Notes: a model not told the origin generated them from the sequence alone. Counted from the first letter of the stretch, positions 6,257-61,953 are shown. The stretch: 64,000 bases of DNA from an uncultured Clostridia bacterium (GCA_944364615.1 CALVWF010000001.1:65840-129839); one strand, 5' to 3'. Made by a program: numbers and translations.

Positions 6257-6864
6257 TCAGGCTGTCTTTTGCAAAAACGCACGCAACTTGTCACTCTTCG
6301 GATTGAGCAACACCTCCGACGCACGTCCGTATTCCTCGGCAACCCCCTCCGAGAGAAACAAGACGTTGTCTGCGACATTCAATGCAAACTGCATTTCGTG
6401 CGTTACTATAATCATTGTTCGATCCGAACTCTTCAACGATCTGATGACTTTCAGCACTTCCCCGTCAATTCGGGATCCAATGCGCTTGTAGGTTCGTCGA
6501 AACACAGTACGGAAGGTTGAAGTATCAATGCACGCGCGATGGCAACACGCTGTTGCTGTCCGCCCGACAGTTGGTAAGGGTAGCAGTCTTTTTTGTCAGA
6601 CATTCCCACACGGACAAGCCACTGTTCGGCACTGACTGTCCATTCGCGCTGCAAGTCGTCACGCAACTGTCTGTACTGTTCGCTGAAAGTTTGTTTTAAT
6701 TGCCTTTTCTTTAAGCCCGACTCTTTTTTCAATTGTACCGCAATTTGCTTTTTCATGTCAACAAGTTGTTGCCTGCACAGCAATTTTTTTGCCAACGCCA
6801 CATTTTCCAGAGCGGTATATTGAGGAAACAGATTGAAGTGCTGAAAAACCATTCCGAACTGCAA
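6257..6864 (-). pseudogene. Remnant of an amino-acid-type ABC transporter ATP-binding protein (5'-truncated and frameshifted)
   Basis: Two overlapping ORFs in different frames. 6451-6864 has Q-loop [27 protein letters not shown] and Walker [15 protein letters not shown]. 6257-6505 has [10 protein letters not shown]...MIIVTHEMQFA. The Walker A region (about 75 aa) is missing, and a TAA lies just upstream in frame. No permease or binding-protein gene nearby. Confidence 0.8.
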
Positions 6865-6983
6865 CCTTAAACGATAAAACTTACCGCAATTGACCTTTAA
6901 TTACAGTGTAGTAGCGACTCGGTTATACCCTATGTCAAAGCCGCCGATAAAAATACAAAAAAAACATTAAACAGACGTCCGAC

Positions 6984-11681: not shown

Positions 11682-12409
11682 TATTTTGTCCTGCCGAGTA
11701 TTCCGTCCGTCAAAGACAGTACGTAAAGCGGAGCGGTCTCCGCACGCAAAATGCGTTTGCCCAGAGTAACGGCCGTAGCGCCCGCATCAACTGCCGCCTG
11801 CGCCTCCTCGGGAGAAAATCCTCCTTCGCTTCCTACAATTATTGCGATGTTTTTTACCGGTTTCGAATCCAGCACGTCAAACACAGTACCTTCACGCTGA
11901 TTTTCGTAGCAAAACAACGCAATGTCGTAATTTTTCAATTCTTCCGTCAATCGGGCAAAGTTACAACGGCTGACTTGTACCGCAATCGCTCTTCCGCACT
12001 GTTTGGAGGCTTCCAGCGCAATACGGTTAAGCCTTTCCAGTTTTTTGTCATCACACTCTCCTACGGTATAACGGCTGTCAAACAGCACTACGCGGTTTAC
12101 TCCCAGTTCCACCGCTTTCTGTACTACAAAGTCGTTTTTGTCCCCTTTGCAAACGCCGAAATAAAGCGTGGTCAAGTACCCGTTTTCCGCGGAGGAAACT
12201 CGGCTTTCTTCTATACGCAAGACCACACTTTTGCCGTCGATGTTTTCCACTACCGACAAATGTTCCCATCCGTCGTTGAAACAAATCACCGCTTTGTCAC
12301 CCGCTTTCATTCGCAAGACTCTTGCCATATGGTGATATTCGCTTGTGACGTTGACTATGTCGCCCTGCCGTTCTTCGGGCAGCGCAAAAAATCTTCGTAT
12401 CTGACTCAT
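11681..12409 (-). CDS. rsmE: 16S rRNA (uracil1498-N3)-methyltransferase RsmE
   Basis: 242-aa ORF. HHMARVLRMKAGD head, IIVGSEGGFSPEE and LGKRILRAETA C-terminal motifs. Confidence 0.88.
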   Translation of the reverse strand: MSQIRRFFALPEERQGDIVNVTSEYHHMARVLRMKAGDKAVICFNDGWEHLSVVENIDGKSVVLRIEESRVSSAENGYLTTLYFGVCKGDKNDFVVQKAVELGVNRVVLFDSRYTVGECDDKKLERLNRIALEASKQCGRAIAVQVSRCNFARLTEELKNYDIALFCYENQREGTVFDVLDSKPVKNIAIIVGSEGGFSPEEAQAAVDAGATAVTLGKRILRAETAPLYVLSLTDGILGRTK

Positions 12410-13322: not shown

Positions 13323-13646
13323 TCAGTTAATCAGTATGTCAATAAGTTTTTTGGCGTTTTCCCATTCACGCTTGTTTACCAGATACAACGCCCTGCCACG
13401 TTCGGTGATAGTATAGTATTTGCGTGTAGCACCGACGTTTTCCCCCCACGAACCTTTGATACATTCCATATCTTCCAGACGGTGATAAGCCGAATACAGA
13501 CTCTGTTCGTTGGGAACATACAGATTGTCTGTTTTTTTGGCAATGAACTTGCGTATCTCGTTGCCGTATTTAGTTCCGTCCATCAACGCCGACAACACGA
13601 AAGTGTCGATGTGCCCGCGAAGCAGATCGCTTGAAATTACCTTCAT
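13323..13646 (-). CDS. PadR family transcriptional regulator
   Basis: 107-aa ORF. LLRGHIDTFVLSALMDGTKYGNEIRKFI...YSAYHRLEDMECI...RKYYTITERGR. Confidence 0.85.
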   Translation of the reverse strand: MKVISSDLLRGHIDTFVLSALMDGTKYGNEIRKFIAKKTDNLYVPNEQSLYSAYHRLEDMECIKGSWGENVGATRKYYTITERGRALYLVNKREWENAKKLIDILIN

Positions 13647-57342: not shown

Positions 57343-58296
57343 CTATTCGACGGTAATATAGCGACCTCTTCCCTTGATTTTGTCTGCCGAGTACTTGCAA
57401 CCGCATTTGTCTCCGAAGTAAAGCAACTTTAACGAGTCCGCAAAAGGCTTTCTGAACACCACTGCATTGCCTTTTTTACCCAGTTCCAGAAGCAGAGTGA
57501 ATATTTCGGAGTCAGCAGGATGCCAGTGCGTGGAGTAACTTTTGCCGCCTATACATGCGAAGAATTCAAGAACACATTCCGAATCGACATATACGTATAA
57601 TGTAAAACCGTCAAAATTCCAGACAAGCGTGTCGCCGTCGACGCTGTACTTTCCACCGAGGTCGGGAACGCTTTCCAACATTTCGTACAACTGCCGTGCG
57701 TTACGTGGTACAAAAGGCTCAACGCATTGGTAACGTGGATCGAATGCATGCAGGTAACCTGCCGTAAGTACTATCGATTCGGGCAAAACCCGCCCGACGG
57801 TAAACGTTTCGTCAAACAACGAGCAATCGAGCAGAACCTTGACGGTAAAATCAGCCGTCAGACCGCCGTCGAGTAAAGCGATTCTGAACTGTAACCATTG
57901 ATCGAACTCCATAGATGAATCCTTTTCGTCGTATTTTCCCCGCCTTACAATCATGCACTTACCATTTTCGCCAAAGGACAAAAAGTCAAAATCGGGAAAA
58001 ATGTATAAATCGCCTCCGTACAAAAAATAACTGCGACTTGTATTCCTGTGAAAAACGCATTGTACGGAAAGATCGCGCTGTCTGACGCCTTTATAAAACA
58101 TGTATTGCGGCGAATAAGTTACGTTACTTTTATACGGTATGTGAAATTGTTTGTAATAATCGCTTCTCCTATATTGTACCGCCTCGGCAAGGGACGCAAA
58201 AGGGAAAATAAACGCAATGAAAACAAATGCAACAACTATTATCGGAAAACACACAATAAACATCAACACATACAGTAAGACTTTATACCATTTCAT
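57343..58296 (-). CDS. Hypothetical membrane-anchored protein
   Basis: ORF 57343-58350 trimmed to MKWYKVLLYVLMFIVCFPIIVVAFVFIAFIF (ATG 58296 behind AAAGGAAG). One N-terminal TM region then about 270 aa with no motif I recognise. Confidence 0.55.
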   Translation of the reverse strand: MKWYKVLLYVLMFIVCFPIIVVAFVFIAFIFPFASLAEAVQYRRSDYYKQFHIPYKSNVTYSPQYMFYKGVRQRDLSVQCVFHRNTSRSYFLYGGDLYIFPDFDFLSFGENGKCMIVRRGKYDEKDSSMEFDQWLQFRIALLDGGLTADFTVKVLLDCSLFDETFTVGRVLPESIVLTAGYLHAFDPRYQCVEPFVPRNARQLYEMLESVPDLGGKYSVDGDTLVWNFDGFTLYVYVDSECVLEFFACIGGKSYSTHWHPADSEIFTLLLELGKKGNAVVFRKPFADSLKLLYFGDKCGCKYSADKIKGRGRYITVE

Positions 58297-58944
58297 ATTC
58301 TCGCACTTCCTTTCATTAATTAAAACACAAAAAAAATTATTTTGCAACATTATGTCAATGAGATGTTGCTTTGCCCCTTTCAGCGTTTGAAAAAGCGTGA
58401 CGGTATCGACAGATTGTAATGAAAAAGCGACAATGCTTCAAGCGTCAGAAGTGTACGGAAACAGTCTGTTGCAGGTTTTAAGTCGACGATAAATCTTCTT
58501 CCTATTACTGCGGTAACGCACGACTTTTTTTAAAACGTTTTCCGGCACATTGGTGCACGACGACACTTCAAACGTTACGCAACCGACAACACACAACCCC
58601 GAAACAAAAACGGAAAGCCAAAAGATTTAAAACCGACAAACCGTATTTTAATTCAAAAAATACGTTGAAACGTATGGTAAAAGCATACGACAGTAAACGG
58701 GCTCGGTAAGGTCAGATTCTTTCGGTAAATAATTATTGTGCAAATGAAATACGAAAAACATTCAAACGCAAAAACCGCAAAAGTGTGCCTCGACTGACCG
58801 CCTGTGCACTGCATAAACACACCAATACCTGACTTACAACCGATGTGCAGGATACAGCAATACCGCTCTCAGTAAGAGCGGTACGCATTGAATACCGTTA
58901 AATGCAGAACAAAGGCTGTTTGCAACCACAAAACGATTCAATAG

Positions 58945-58973
58945 AAAAAGGGCGCATTGTGTGCGCCCTTTTT
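58945..58973. terminator. Bidirectional terminator at the left edge of the AT-rich island
   Basis: aaaaaGGGCGCA-ttgtg-TGCGCCCttttt. About 90 nt downstream of the NTase-like gene on the minus strand. Confidence 0.85.
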
Positions 58974-59006
58974 AATCGATTTGTTTTTGTGCTATCGCTT
59001 TAATAC

Positions 59007-59066
59007 AAAATGACACCCCTACTTGCAAAACGACACCCTTACTAGATAAACGAAACCCCTAAATTA
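59007..59066. repeat. Left-end array: three tandem 20-bp repeats
   Basis: aaaatgacacccctacttgc / aaaacgacacccttactaga / taaacgaaacccctaaatta (16/20 and 13/20 identities between neighbours). The last unit overlaps the stop codon of the NTase-like gene. Confidence 0.8.
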
Positions 59067-59726
59067 AGACTTTTTTCTATGATTGTATCGATCATAAACT
59101 TCGTTAACTGCTTCGATATAACAAATAAACGATGGATGATTATAATCATTTCTTGTTAAATACATATTTTTCTTATTTAAGTACCCTTCTCTTACTTCAT
59201 TCCAATAGTTATGGTTTTTAAGCCAATCAACTTTTTTATTTAAATTATATGAATTACGTCCTTCATTCCAAATCCAGACATCATTGCGTGTATTACCAGT
59301 TTTCTGATGAATTAGTCTCCACCATGAGCCATTTGAATCTTCAACAACGATTCCTAAGTCAATGCTAAATCTTGTCTTATTTCCACTTGTAAAATTTCGA
59401 TTTTCAGTAGTTAAAGCAGACGTAGAATCTTGGCAATCACCCCATCCATTTCTGTTTAAGATTACATTAAACTTTTTCCTTATATATTCTTTGATTCCTT
59501 GACAATCATTAATATTCCAAGAACGAATAATAGAAATATTGTAATCTAAATCAACTGGTTCAAATTCGTTTTGAGTTTCTAAATTTCTAGAACCACTGCC
59601 AACACTATGTGCCACAACTATCATCTTGCCTTCGTTATTAATTTCTTGAACCAACTGATTAACTAAATTAGAGCAAACTGATCTTAACTTCTTTAGAAAT
59701 TCTTTATCTTCTATATAATGATACAT
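59064..59726 (-). CDS. Pol-beta-superfamily nucleotidyltransferase-like protein (220 aa)
   Basis: GGAGG RBS. hGS at G43-S44 (HSVGSGSR), DxD at D59/D61 (PVDLDYNI) and a third acidic strand FSIDLGIVVED (D123), in the spacing of minimal NTase folds. W/N/Y-rich helical C-terminal half. Family not identified. Confidence 0.55.
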   Translation of the reverse strand: MYHYIEDKEFLKKLRSVCSNLVNQLVQEINNEGKMIVVAHSVGSGSRNLETQNEFEPVDLDYNISIIRSWNINDCQGIKEYIRKKFNVILNRNGWGDCQDSTSALTTENRNFTSGNKTRFSIDLGIVVEDSNGSWWRLIHQKTGNTRNDVWIWNEGRNSYNLNKKVDWLKNHNYWNEVREGYLNKKNMYLTRNDYNHPSFICYIEAVNEVYDRYNHRKKS

Positions 59727-59801
59727 ACTTAAAAACCTCCTAAATAAATATTATCCCCATGCCTACCATTTGAAGTATGTATCTTTTCTTCAAATCCTAT
59801 T

Positions 59802-59830
59802 ATTATACATTTCAATTACCAATTTGTCGA
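59802..59830 (-). promoter_or_regulatory. Sigma-A promoter of the NTase-like gene
   Basis: Minus strand TCGACA (59830-59825), 17-nt spacer, TATAAT (59807-59802). Confidence 0.6.
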
Positions 59831-59884
59831 TGGTTATCGTTCATTTTCATTATTTCAATGATTTCACATTAAAACTTGAAATGC

Positions 59885-59925
59885 AAAAAAACGCACGAAA
59901 TGACACTAAATCACTTCAATGCGTT
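59885..59925 (-). terminator. Rho-independent terminator after the 2-TM gene
   Basis: Minus strand AACGCA-tt-GAAgTGA-loop-TCAtTTC-g-TGCGTT followed by TTTTT. Separates the NTase-like gene from the upstream pair. Confidence 0.65.
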
Positions 59926-60029
59926 TATATTTGTTATCAATGTAATTATTTAAACCGAAATCACTATTATTATTTCTTATTGGAAGTATACTAAATTTTA
60001 ATTTAAGAAAGATAACTATAATTTCAATT

Positions 60030-60500
60030 CTATCTATAAAGTACAACAATTTTAGGATCTGACAAATCTTGTTCTCTAACAAAGCATTCTGCGTAATCTC
60101 CAACTTGATATGAAGTAAAATATTTTGAGAATATTCTATATACAAATCTAATTCTAACTTTTTTATTTAAATTATCTGTTTCGATTTTTCCATACATTAC
60201 ACTACCTATGGATCTTTCTAGGATTTTAACATGAATCAATTTTCCTTTTGAATTAATAAATGGCAAAAATCTATATAGATATATAATCAAAGAAGCAATA
60301 AAACAAATAGCAAACAATACATCTATCAATATTAGAACACTAAATATTTCATTAACTGCTTCTTGATTAGCATTTGTGGAATCAAAAGACTTTAAATAAA
60401 ATATCAAGCATAAAAAGCAAATAAATGTTATTAGTTGAATTGCTAAGGAAATAATCATCCAATAAAAACCGTACATTCTTTTAATATTGAATTTTTCCAT
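60030..60500 (-). CDS. Two-TM protein with small beta-rich C-terminal domain
   Basis: 156-aa ORF. TM1 about residues 10-36 and TM2 about 52-79, then about 75 aa of alternating beta-like sequence ending YQVGDYAECFVREQDLSDPKIVVLY. GGAG RBS inside the upstream gene's end. Confidence 0.6.
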   Translation of the reverse strand: MEKFNIKRMYGFYWMIISLAIQLITFICFLCLIFYLKSFDSTNANQEAVNEIFSVLILIDVLFAICFIASLIIYLYRFLPFINSKGKLIHVKILERSIGSVMYGKIETDNLNKKVRIRFVYRIFSKYFTSYQVGDYAECFVREQDLSDPKIVVLYR

Positions 60501-60502
60501 AT

Positions 60503-61039
60503 TTAAACTCCATATTTATAATTTATGTTTCCAACAACCATACTACCACGGTTATTCGTGTTGTTAACATAGTTTGTTCTTATAATGAATCTTATCTTTG
60601 TAGCGCCAGATTCGAATACATCTACATAATTTGTTAGGTTATCTTTATTAGTTGACATCTCTTTTGGATTAAAAATTCTTTTGGTTTTCCAACCATTATT
60701 ATAATATTCTAAAGTAATTGAACTTTTTTTAATAAGTGATTCATCATCACTCCAAAGGGCAATATTGTAATTGAATTCAAAAATACTAACATTTTCATCA
60801 ATCAAGTTTTCTTCTTCAATTTCAACTTCTTCTTTTTCCTGTGGAATATAATTATCAATATAAGACATACTTGATAAATTTTCCACATCATTACCTTTTG
60901 TAAGTTTTAATAGCTTTTTATCAACAACAACTTCCTGGGAATTATAAAACCCCTTATTAAAAGTCGATAATGTGCTAGAGGATACAATTCCCATTCCTAA
61001 AATCATTAAAAGAACCAATTTTTTTAAATGTTTTTTCAT
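60503..61039 (-). CDS. Secreted or membrane-anchored protein with acidic linker and beta-rich C-terminal domain
   Basis: 178-aa ORF. Signal/anchor MKKHLKKLVLLMILGMGIVSSS, acidic stretch QEKEEVEIEEENLIDEN, then Asn/Tyr-rich domain. Stop lies 2 nt before the next start. Confidence 0.55.
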   Translation of the reverse strand: MKKHLKKLVLLMILGMGIVSSSTLSTFNKGFYNSQEVVVDKKLLKLTKGNDVENLSSMSYIDNYIPQEKEEVEIEEENLIDENVSIFEFNYNIALWSDDESLIKKSSITLEYYNNGWKTKRIFNPKEMSTNKDNLTNYVDVFESGATKIRFIIRTNYVNNTNNRGSMVVGNINYKYGV

Positions 61040-61080
61040 TAATAAAACCTACTATGTCTTGGTTAGTCGGACCTAACTAA

Positions 61081-61108
61081 AGTATACTACTTCCTTTTTA
61101 TATGTCAA
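61081..61108 (-). promoter_or_regulatory. Sigma-A promoter of the secreted-protein/2-TM pair
   Basis: Minus strand TTGACA (61108-61103), 16-nt spacer, TATACT (61086-61081). Confidence 0.55.
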
Positions 61109-61159
61109 TAATTCTAATAGTGATTTCACATTGGAATATAAAAAACAAATTCATTTAAC

Positions 61160-61339
61160 TCACAAAAAATTAGAAATTATAAGCATTGGATACTCTTGCT
61201 CCAATAATGACTTAACACCGTACTGATTGTCAGAAACTTCCTTATCGTGAATTTGTGCCTCCTCCCCGAAAATGCCAATTACTCCGTGGGAATGTTTATG
61301 CTGTTCAGTTAATCTCTTCGATTGATTCTTTTTTGCCAT
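61160..61339 (-). CDS. Small hypothetical protein (59 aa)
   Basis: Track ORF 61160-61357 trimmed to MAKKNQSKRL (ATG 61339, GAGGTG 6 nt upstream). The longer form starts at an ATG overlapping the HTH stop by 1 nt. No family recognised. Confidence 0.4.
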   Translation of the reverse strand: MAKKNQSKRLTEQHKHSHGVIGIFGEEAQIHDKEVSDNQYGVKSLLEQEYPMLIISNFL

Positions 61340-61356
61340 TCTCTTCACCTCATTCA

Positions 61357-61551
61357 TTAATTATCTAGTTTCATGCCAATCTCGTTAAAGAGAACGACAA
61401 ATTTCTTCTTGGTATCCATAGTTGGTTCAAATCTACCTGTTTCCCATCTACAAACGGAAACATAACTAACATTTAATATTTTAGCTAGTTCTTCCTGTGT
61501 TAAGCATTTTCTTTCACGGTATTCTTTTATTTTCTTTGCATAATCAAACAT
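61357..61551 (-). CDS. XRE family HTH protein (Cro/CI-like, 64 aa)
   Basis: LTQEELAKILNVSYVSVCRWETGRFEP HTH_3 pattern. GAGGTG RBS. Confidence 0.8.
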   Translation of the reverse strand: MFDYAKKIKEYRERKCLTQEELAKILNVSYVSVCRWETGRFEPTMDTKKKFVVLFNEIGMKLDN

Positions 61552-61650
61552 ATGGTCACCTCAAATGGTTATCATTATTTTAACACAAACAAGTTTAAGT
61601 TTCGATATTTTCATGCAGCTTTGATGAGATTTTTTCTCAAAAAGAGTGAG

Positions 61651-61749
61651 TTGAAAATGGGGTGTCATTTATATAGTAGGGTATCGTTTATCTAGTAGAC
61701 TAACGTTTCTCTAGTAAGGGTATCGTTTATCTAGTAGGACTAAAATCTT
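61651..61749. repeat. Right-end array: five tandem 19-21-bp repeats, inverted relative to the left array
   Basis: ttgaaaatggggtgtcattta / tatagtagggtatcgttta / tctagtagactaacgtttc / tctagtaagggtatcgttta / tctagtaggactaaaatctt. Unit 4 (61710-61729) matches the reverse complement of left unit 2 at 18/20. Confidence 0.8.
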
Positions 61750-61835
61750 AAATTCCGTAGGTTCGAACCAATTCATATCTACTAGCAAAACGCAATTTAT
61801 AAAAAAATGCCCGATTTCTCGGACAAATATCGTTA

Positions 61836-61855
61836 ATTTTGACACCCTTACTTTG
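61836..61855. repeat. Solitary repeat copy in left-array orientation, 23 nt from the tRNA 3' end
   Basis: attttGACACCCTTACTttg. The 12-mer GACACCCTTACT (61841-61852) is identical and co-oriented with 59032-59043. Confidence 0.75.
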
Positions 61856-61877
61856 TATCAAAATGTTAGTTATAAGA

Positions 61878-61953
61878 TGGTGCTGGCGAGAGGATTCGAA
61901 CCTCCGGCCTATTGATTACGAATCAATTGCTCTACCGACTGAGCCACGCCAGC
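61878..61953 (-). tRNA. tRNA-Thr (anticodon CGU), CCA encoded
   Basis: Manual fold of GCTGGCGTGGCTCAGTCGGTAGAGCAATTGATTCGTAATCAATAGGCCGGAGGTTCGAATCCTCTCGCCAGCACCA. 7-bp acceptor, U8, D arm GCTC/GAGC, anticodon stem ATTGA/TCAAT with loop TTCGTAA, T arm GGAGG-TTCGAAT-CCTCT (one G-U), discriminator A. Confidence 0.9.

Follow-up and report, generated by a model that had tools for sequence, protein, structure and literature searches.

Repeat arrays at the ends of a tRNA-adjacent island as probable accessory sites in a family of serine-recombinase cassettes

The island beside tRNA-Thr and its repeats

The window, by which we mean the complete 64,000-nucleotide stretch of uncultured Clostridia DNA analysed here (GCA_944364615.1 CALVWF010000001.1:65840-129839), has as its sole tRNA gene in an ARAGORN search a tRNA-Thr (CGT) on the reverse strand at 61878-61953 (Rfam tRNA, 76 bits). 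Next to it lies a patch, approximately 59000-61800, in which the G+C content is 25-33%, compared to 45-50% in the surroundings. The gene of this patch closest to the tRNA is an XRE/HTH_3 gene (61357-61551, reverse strand; Pfam HTH_3, 1.4e-08). Behind it comes a truncated gene for an EcoRI-like restriction enzyme (61160-61357, reverse strand; Pfam EcoRI, 1.1e-06; PADLOC REase_II, 1.4e-13), of which an N-terminal stub of the first ~60 codons is all that is left; 61160-61551 is the remnant of a restriction-modification unit. At another locus (L021), a gene whose product is 76% identical to the XRE protein precedes a type I methylase gene. Further from the tRNA, and likewise on the reverse strand, are w178 (60503-61039, 178 aa), w156 (60030-60500, 156 aa), which by inspection is predicted to encode a membrane protein, and w220 (59064-59726, 220 aa), which has no family match. 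Searches of w220, w156 and w178 for family, defence-system (PADLOC) or NCBIfam annotation returned none. By eye, the w220 product contains a GSGS...DLD motif reminiscent of nucleotidyltransferases. Together, w220 and w156 may constitute a small defence or exclusion pair.

Repeat arrays lie towards both ends of the patch. The right array, on the forward strand at 61653-61749, consists of five contiguous units of 19-20 bp: U1 (61653-61671), U2 (61672-61690), U3 (61691-61709), U4 (61710-61729) and U5 (61730-61749). Tandem Repeats Finder reports it at 61660-61738, with a period of 19, 4.1 copies and a score of 100. The left array, on the reverse strand at 59007-59066, consists of three contiguous 20-bp units, L1 (59007-59026), L2 (59027-59046) and L3 (59047-59066, overlapped by the w220 stop codon), and is reported at 59006-59061 with a period of 20, 2.8 copies and a score of 70. 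A preliminary description, made from the sequence of the window, had recognised the five contiguous repeats and their inversion with respect to the left array. Both observations hold, with U3 and U5 being degenerate: both retain TCTAGTAG, and U3 also CGTTT. It had, correctly, matched U4 to the reverse complement of L2 at 18 of 20 positions and found GGGGTGTCATTT shared by U1 and the reverse complement of L1. It had overlooked that the interval from the right array to the tRNA also holds units of the left orientation. One of these, F3 (TTTTGACACCCTTACT; 61837-61852, reverse strand), is a full unit orientated as L1-L3, while remnants of two more (ATCTACTAGCAAAACGC, 61777-61793) lie in a conserved spacer at 61760-61793 that begins with the palindrome GGTTCGAACC (61760-61769). 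This palindrome is similar to GGAnTCGAACC, the T-arm motif that is conserved in the tRNA half of the target, and its conservation in other loci is moderate only.

The units are asymmetric direct repeats without dyad symmetry, and their period of 19-20 bp does not fit the helical repeat. At a tolerance of up to three mismatches, the 20-mer consensus matches twice in 64 kb, at U4 and L2 only, against 0.01 matches expected; the core GTARGGGTGTC, with up to one mismatch, occurs seven times in the window against 1.23 expected, and four of the seven occurrences are at the island ends. An Rfam search at E values up to 1 found no known RNA family over the arrays.

The limits of the island are given by strains that lack it. 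When the flanking kinase-like protein was queried against public assemblies, contigs of the same species were recovered both with and without the island. In four island-free loci (L006, L007, L009 and L010), 58983 is joined straight to 61878 with a 2-nt overlap (...AATCGATT-TG-GTGCTGGCG...), and the insert is therefore 58984-61879, approximately 2.9 kb, placed exactly at the encoded CCA end of tRNA-Thr. Hence, the arrays do stand at both ends of a discrete, strain-variable insert beside a tRNA gene, as had been proposed, although the element boundaries had been wrongly set at the array edges: the true ends are 23 bp beyond the left array and 128 bp beyond the right. Occupied and empty sites differ by the insert alone and have only TG in common. 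The left crossover TG (attL, 58982-58983), defined by the empty-site overlap, has host DNA to its left, and the right crossover TG (attR, 61878-61879) is, on the opposite strand, the CA of the encoded CCA. The target-site duplication for which the preliminary description had recommended a search is absent from the empty-site comparison, a 5-bp duplication included, and we saw no partial duplication of the tRNA at the far end, which would be expected for tyrosine integrases. The element ends read TTTTTGTGC... and ...GTTATAAGA, their terminal 25-27 bp being the two halves of one dyad site, and the predicted island-specific circle junction contains ...GTTATAAGATGTTTTTGTGCTATCGC....

One further locus of the same species, L011, carries a variant of the island with an internal deletion of 60636-61524, which removes the XRE gene, the nuclease stub and most of w178; decay of the island is therefore ongoing. 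Just outside the island, a 335-aa ORF without a Pfam match (57343-58350, 39-43% G+C) is found in island-free and island-bearing strains alike.

The attachment module, its targets and its autonomous relatives

Two scans were made for relatives, one of viral contigs for the repeat and, separately, one of a single genome per species. The latter returned 49 loci, nearly all of them in gut MAGs of uncultured Bacilli, Acholeplasmatales or 'Mollicutes'; a genome frequently holds several, and many of the loci are at contig ends. Across these loci, conservation is highest within ~27 bp on each side of TG. The P' half-site, TTTTTGTGCTATCGCTTTAATACAAAA (58984-59010, forward strand), is near-invariant in the 49 L ends, and its consensus starts with TC where the window has TT; the P half-site, TTGTATCAAAATGTTAGTTATAAGA (61853-61877, forward strand), is identical or near-identical in at least 31 R ends and in 16 metagenome loci. 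The P arm of the window matches the family consensus exactly and its P' arm carries one substitution. The joined consensus is TTGTATCAAAATGTTAGTTATAAGA-TG-TCTTTGTGCTATCGCTTTAATACAAAA, in which the two half-sites, read outward from TG as P' and the reverse complement of P, match at 19 of 27 positions (consensus comparison). In its layout it corresponds to a serine-integrase attP that crosses over at 2 bp, the core of ~55 bp being made up of two imperfectly symmetric half-sites of 25-27 bp around TG. When the right and left ends of the window were joined in silico, the resulting module of ~330 bp proved contiguous in at least 20 other loci at 82-89% identity, and in the remaining loci the match stops exactly at the predicted joint (TG, position 280/281). 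TG ends each of the 34 distinct attL flanks and is also present in the empty sites, in the joined forms and at 17 attR junctions.

The module runs in the order five units, spacer, terminator, one opposite unit, core and three opposite units. F3 abuts the P half-site and the left array directly abuts the P' half-site, such that F3 and L1 stand at equal distance from the core and point in the same direction; both are nearly as conserved as the core itself. From there conservation declines outward, being strong for L1, moderate for L2 and weak for L3 across the 49 L ends. Between elements it starts exactly at U1 and stops at L3, despite the unrelated cargo between the conserved ends, which includes methyltransferases (among them cytosine methyltransferases), ABC exporters with TetR, IS21, HAD hydrolases and defence genes. 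The distinction between good units (U2 and U4) and variant units (U3, GCCTAACGTTT, and U5) follows the same pattern in other loci and species. The number of U units varies, with chains of 0-5 CTAGTA anchors corresponding to roughly 0-6 units, and about one third of R ends have no U array yet keep F3, P and the terminator; hence, the array is dispensable for persistence and perhaps for function. Three or more units were counted at 16 of 20 tRNA-adjacent junctions and at 13 of 23 internal junctions, a trend only. We also asked whether the unit is a copy of an att half-site. A weight matrix compared with shuffles gave p = 0.07 for P' and p = 0.74 for P, and as neither value is significant we make no claim for the TATCG/TAACG resemblance of unit and half-site.

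The terminator of the module, at 61808-61825 on the reverse strand, is a hairpin with a 7-pair stem and a TTTTTTT tail in the tRNA sense. It is conserved in other loci, its stem tolerating a TC/CT swap opposite GG. The insertion has pushed the tRNA's own terminator hairpin to approximately 58950-58970, 2.9 kb from the gene, and the element-borne terminator substitutes for it.

The sequences flanking the family identify its targets. On the tRNA side there are 17 distinct attR sequences, namely 16 tRNA 3' ends plus a single TGG site that does not belong to a tRNA; the 16 tRNA ends are conserved at TGG and in the T-arm (GGAnTTGAACC) only, and in the window the 3' end of tRNA-Thr is the conserved half of attB. 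The other flank, represented by 34 distinct sequences, has nothing in common but TG. Unjoined right arms that continue with TGG run, with one exception, into tRNA 3' ends. Targets in the genome set were Thr-CGT, Arg-TCT, Leu-GAG, Leu-TAG, Met and Trp, and all 16 metagenome matches were at a tRNA CCA end (Leu-TAG, Leu-CAG, Leu-GAG, Trp, Val-GAC, Val-CAC or Pro-CGG). Since only the tRNA half is recognisable, an occupied site, in which a P arm lies beside the tRNA, is as good a target as an empty one. It follows that joined R-to-L junctions, which are spaced by 1-4 kb on long contigs of chromosomal origin such as L026, L059, L085 and L088, are stacks of cassettes with the newest nearest the tRNA. 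Direct support for a one-half tRNA target comes from a phage relative with 49% recombinase identity, whose second recombinase is identical in three loci situated at tRNA-Leu, tRNA-Ser and tRNA-Pro respectively; in each, the junction consists of ...TTTGTATCAAAATTGGTGTCCAGTTA followed immediately by TGG. On the reverse strand of L038 (~6700-6870), a lone P' half-site is fused at TG inside a homologue of w178 (...GGTTATTCGTGTTG joined to TCTTTGTGCTATCGC...), which looks like recombination at a pseudo-site within cargo.

In the scan of viral contigs, two phage fragments were recovered that share the three-unit array and the terminal GTATTAAAGCGATAGCAC with the window; each carries two adjacent large serine recombinases 1.5-3 kb further inward. 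The recombinase pair, of 437 aa and 524 aa, each with Resolvase, Recombinase and Zn_ribbon_recom domains, adjoins the L array in L014, L016, L051, L054, L066, L068 and L069, and several decayed islands hold recombinase fragments; within the 64-kb window there are no recombinase genes. Close homologues of the 524-aa recombinase sit in prophages with tape-measure, Dit, holin-like and lysis genes, where the gene order is lysis, an HTH/double-zinc-ribbon gene (131-134 aa), a 63-aa gene, recombinase A, recombinase B, cargo, three-unit array and att. The autonomous relatives are siphovirus-like prophages. A search of the viral contigs for the R-end half-site gave no match, and the loci collected accordingly include no complete phage genome carrying an intact attP and no single contig that holds both ends together with the recombinases. 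Homologues of w220 are the last gene before the L array in eight genome-scan loci and in L066, L068 and L069. These homologues are diverged (28-99% identity) and keep this position before the three-unit array in L054, L038 and L046 too, full prophages being among the carriers.

The search for further copies and a cognate enzyme that the preliminary description had suggested has therefore recovered many copies of the ends together with paired large serine recombinases. Its view of a non-autonomous, tRNA-homing element moved in trans stands in outline, there being no recombinase inside the island, whereas the mechanism would be serine-recombinase attachment and not transposition.

The HTH/zinc-ribbon gene accompanies the recombinases even in relatives whose identity has fallen to 40%. 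Its predicted structure (mean pLDDT 78.6) has an N-terminal three-helix bundle followed by two zinc-ribbon modules. A fold search with this model gave no significant match (best E = 0.13), only local resemblances over ~40 residues to LuxR/GerE-type HTH domains and to YacG. Arrays extend to more distant elements: a relative with 67% recombinase identity has kept the three-unit array while its core (inner) half-site is altered, and the 49% relative has 21-bp repeats beside its att arm. In relatives of the latter kind (L089, L090, L091 at 11800-11860 and L092 at 13430-13485), an outer motif, TTGTATCAAAAT, is flanked by an inverted repeat of 9-10 bp whose sequence changes from phage to phage while its arms remain complementary: one phage has CTGGACACC/GGTGTCCAG and the other CTGAACGC/GCGTTCAG. 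Three recombinases are encoded in L092, and the last of them contains DUF4368. In a relative at 53% identity (L071/L072, 6180-6230), a GGGGTGTGC unit and a ATTGTATCAAAAG arm end at TGG, beyond which is a tRNA-like sequence that was not recognised as a tRNA; an XRE gene and a MmeI/Eco57I/AbiJ/GmrSD defence block come next.

The prophage L066 also reveals the origin of the island. Positions 59856-61182 of the window are 92-98% identical to the DNA right after its second recombinase (B); the stretch with w156 and w178 (60030-61039), just downstream of that recombinase in L066, is 95-98% identical, and w178 is a deleted version of a 718-aa protein encoded there. Given this match, the island is a deletion derivative with essentially intact att arms, and because the homology starts at ~61182, inside the nuclease stub, the deletion that formed it cut through the restriction-modification unit. 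Its right part consists of one att arm and the restriction-modification remnant, and its left part of post-recombinase cargo and the other att arm. Other MAG species contain parts of this cargo at 92-98% identity, there bordered by different flanks.

What the repeat units may do

Taken together, the widespread cassette family comprises siphovirus-like prophages and cut-down, recombinase-less derivatives of them. Its members would move by conservative site-specific recombination, with the tandem large serine recombinase pair of the autonomous members as the probable catalyst, the encoded CCA end of essentially any tRNA gene as the target and TG as the point of exchange. The island in the window has lost the phage body and the recombinases and has kept both arms, and it could still be excisable or movable in trans.

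With a probability of roughly 0.6, we take the five right-hand units to be the inner accessory array of the tRNA-proximal arm of a serine-recombinase cassette, and the units of both arms to be likely accessory protein-binding sites. We assign them to the recombination module and not to neighbouring genes because conservation is delimited by U1 and L3, because F3 and L1 have the geometry described above, because the pattern of good and variant units recurs, and because relatives retain arrays; it is this tie to the module that favours accessory binding sites. We know of no accessory-site requirement among large serine recombinases. Concerning the protein that binds the units, we infer that it would be either the recombinases or, more likely, the HTH/double-zinc-ribbon protein that is always encoded just upstream of them, and that binding would aid the assembly or the direction of synapsis with a target having a single recognisable half. 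A precedent is found in the IS607 family, whose serine transposases bind multiple subterminal repeats to build a synaptic (paired-end) complex (PMC6188088). Against an accessory-site role counts the need of characterised large serine integrases for short att sites only, of ~40-50 bp as far as one account describes them (PMC12286644). The variable U array, missing from about one third of R ends, the non-significant likeness of unit and half-sites, the fold search that matched nothing significantly and the lack of a recombinase gene in the 64-kb window weigh on the same side.

Another explanation is that the units act in transcription, either as binding sites for a regulator or as an insulator that shields the first inward promoter and, with the terminator, blocks read-through from the tRNA or an upstream cassette, or else that they are decaying duplications without function. 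The position of the U array, always between the conserved terminator and the first cargo gene, would suit such a role; unit numbers from 0 to ~6, the many ends without an array and the outward fall in conservation would suit decay. We nevertheless regard this explanation as unlikely, given that promoter distance and gene orientation beside U1 vary among loci, that the good/variant pattern is conserved across species, that L1 and F3 approach the conservation of the core, and that relatives at 67% recombinase identity have kept their arrays. More doubtful still is a function in replication, partition or packaging, in which the units would be iterons or a partition or packaging site for the excised circle or the phage genome and would lie near attP by layout only. 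Iterons, like some terminase and centromere sites, typically consist of tandem direct repeats of 19-22 bp, a type that the arrays fit; in addition, the autonomous members are phages, and satellites often retain the recognition sites of their helpers. Yet in the small cassettes the arrays have no linked Rep, Par or terminase gene, Rep-like families were sought among the island genes and common neighbours and none was found, and the arrays persist in cassettes of 1-4 kb. A period off the helical repeat also speaks against it, and one unit against each half-site at equal distance is a better fit to the geometry of recombination.

Two alternatives came from the preliminary description. Were the units operators of the adjacent XRE protein, they would regulate its divergent promoter, and the protein would probably be the controller of the decayed restriction-modification unit. 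XRE-type proteins bind DNA repeats, and the XRE gene has a promoter-like site (61605-61577) with the array ~45-150 bp upstream. The same array, however, stands beside unrelated genes elsewhere (cytosine methyltransferase, ABC transporters and others), its conservation ends at U1, and an XRE homologue adjoins it in two loci only, the window and L041, most loci having the arrays without the XRE gene. Moreover, the XRE homologue of L021 is beside an L end that lacks a U array, the units have no dyad symmetry of their own, and unit copies also flank the att core and the far element end. Operators are thus disfavoured, and we think them very improbable. The second alternative, towards whose Tn7-like form the preliminary description leaned, would make the arrays the termini of a DDE transposon of Tn7-, Mu- or Tn402-like type homing next to tRNAs, and this we find scarcely credible. 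Asymmetric inverted arrays of ~20-bp units, 3 versus 5 (+1), in the vicinity of a tRNA amount to a resemblance only, set against empty sites without a 5-bp duplication, termini that are not TGT...ACA, and ends that join precisely into an attP-like site with a 2-bp TG crossover, intact in many loci. Pfam searches found no DDE or TnsABC genes in the island, and the relatives, in which none occur either, carry serine recombinases. Accessory sites for recombination therefore remain our preferred reading of the units.

Relation to known systems and significance

Of the systems compared, the family seems to work most like the SCC elements moved by CcrA/CcrB. SCC and SCCmec likewise encode a tandem pair of large serine recombinases, similar in size to those described here, and they use the 3' end of a conserved gene for insertion while the other flank is free. 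They too include ccr-less pseudo-elements and tandem composite islands (PMC6243372), comparable to the recombinase-less island and the stacked R-to-L junctions described here. Flanking DNA affects the efficiency of SCC recombination (PMC6243372), and an influence of this kind is posited for both systems. The best NCBIfam matches of the recombinases are CcrB and CcrA, at 137-167 bits against cut-offs of 700-900, and across the Ccr comparisons the scores run from 68 to 167 bits. Scores so distant from the Ccr cut-offs, together with insertion at a tRNA end and not at rlmH, mean that the family is not a member of SCC: its target is the CCA end of many tRNA genes where SCC uses rlmH (orfX), and, unlike in SCC, its autonomous members are phages, its ends carry arrays of 19-20-bp units and its recombinases are accompanied by HTH/zinc-ribbon and 63-aa genes.

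With the large serine integrases of phages (phiC31, Bxb1, A118 and TP901-1) the family shares the Resolvase, Recombinase and zinc-ribbon architecture, a 2-bp crossover, an imperfectly symmetric attP of ~50 bp and the lack of a duplication, whereas the enzymes characterised in that group work singly, on short sites that lack accessory repeats. Tyrosine integrases (lambda, P2, HP1) have arm-type accessory sites on both attP arms, in mixed orientations, and Xis/Cox repeat arrays. Repeated accessory sites on both attP arms of tRNA-adjacent elements are thus a shared feature, but there is no tyrosine recombinase here, the crossover identity is 2 bp compared to at least 7 bp, and no tRNA segment is duplicated. 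Tn7-like elements, including the CRISPR-associated ones that home to tRNAs, are similar in their asymmetric inverted arrays of ~20-bp sites and in a fixed orientation downstream of a conserved gene; they differ in DDE chemistry, 5-bp duplication, TGT/ACA termini and the possession of TnsA, TnsB and TnsC, none of which is present here. The IS607 family is alike in its serine chemistry, 2-bp exchange and absence of duplication, in several subterminal direct repeats, which in IS607 bind several recombinase dimers, and in a target defined by little beyond the dinucleotide (PMC6188088). It is unlike in having one small serine transposase with an N-terminal DNA-binding domain, motifs of ~9-12 bp and no tRNA specificity; the recombinases of 437 aa and 524 aa have C-terminal Recombinase and zinc-ribbon domains, and the IS607 model gives weak partial matches to them only. 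Clades of multi-targeting large serine recombinases have been described with motifs that are AT-rich or of other kinds, tRNA being unmentioned (PMC10083194). From these the family differs in that one attB half is a tRNA 3' end and the other half arbitrary.

The literature that we searched contains no account of serine recombinases directed at the CCA ends of tRNA genes or equipped with repeat arrays, and the family appears to be an undescribed variant among serine-recombinase integrative elements. A broader reading, which we offer tentatively and with the odds somewhat against it, would combine four features into one undescribed system of uncultured gut Bacilli and Acholeplasmatales-like bacteria. 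Such a system would use phage-borne pairs (or triplets) of large serine recombinases with an HTH/zinc-ribbon partner; it would recognise only the universal tRNA 3' end, that is T-arm and CCA, with exchange at the CA of CCA; it would build integron- or SCC-like stacks of defence and transporter cassettes at many tRNA genes; and its arm-type arrays of 19-20-bp units would serve as accessory sites.

Large serine recombinases are valued for genome engineering and are thought to need two short sites only. If the readings given here are true, a universal CCA end read on one side, together with accessory arrays, would widen the repertoire of target recognition and directionality control, and the family would offer a natural system in which 'arm sites' of serine recombinases can be tested directly. 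They would also account for the way in which cassettes of defence, restriction-modification and transporter genes pile up beside tRNA genes in poorly studied gut bacteria. For the window itself, an unexplained patch of low G+C content becomes a defined prophage remnant, possibly still mobilisable.
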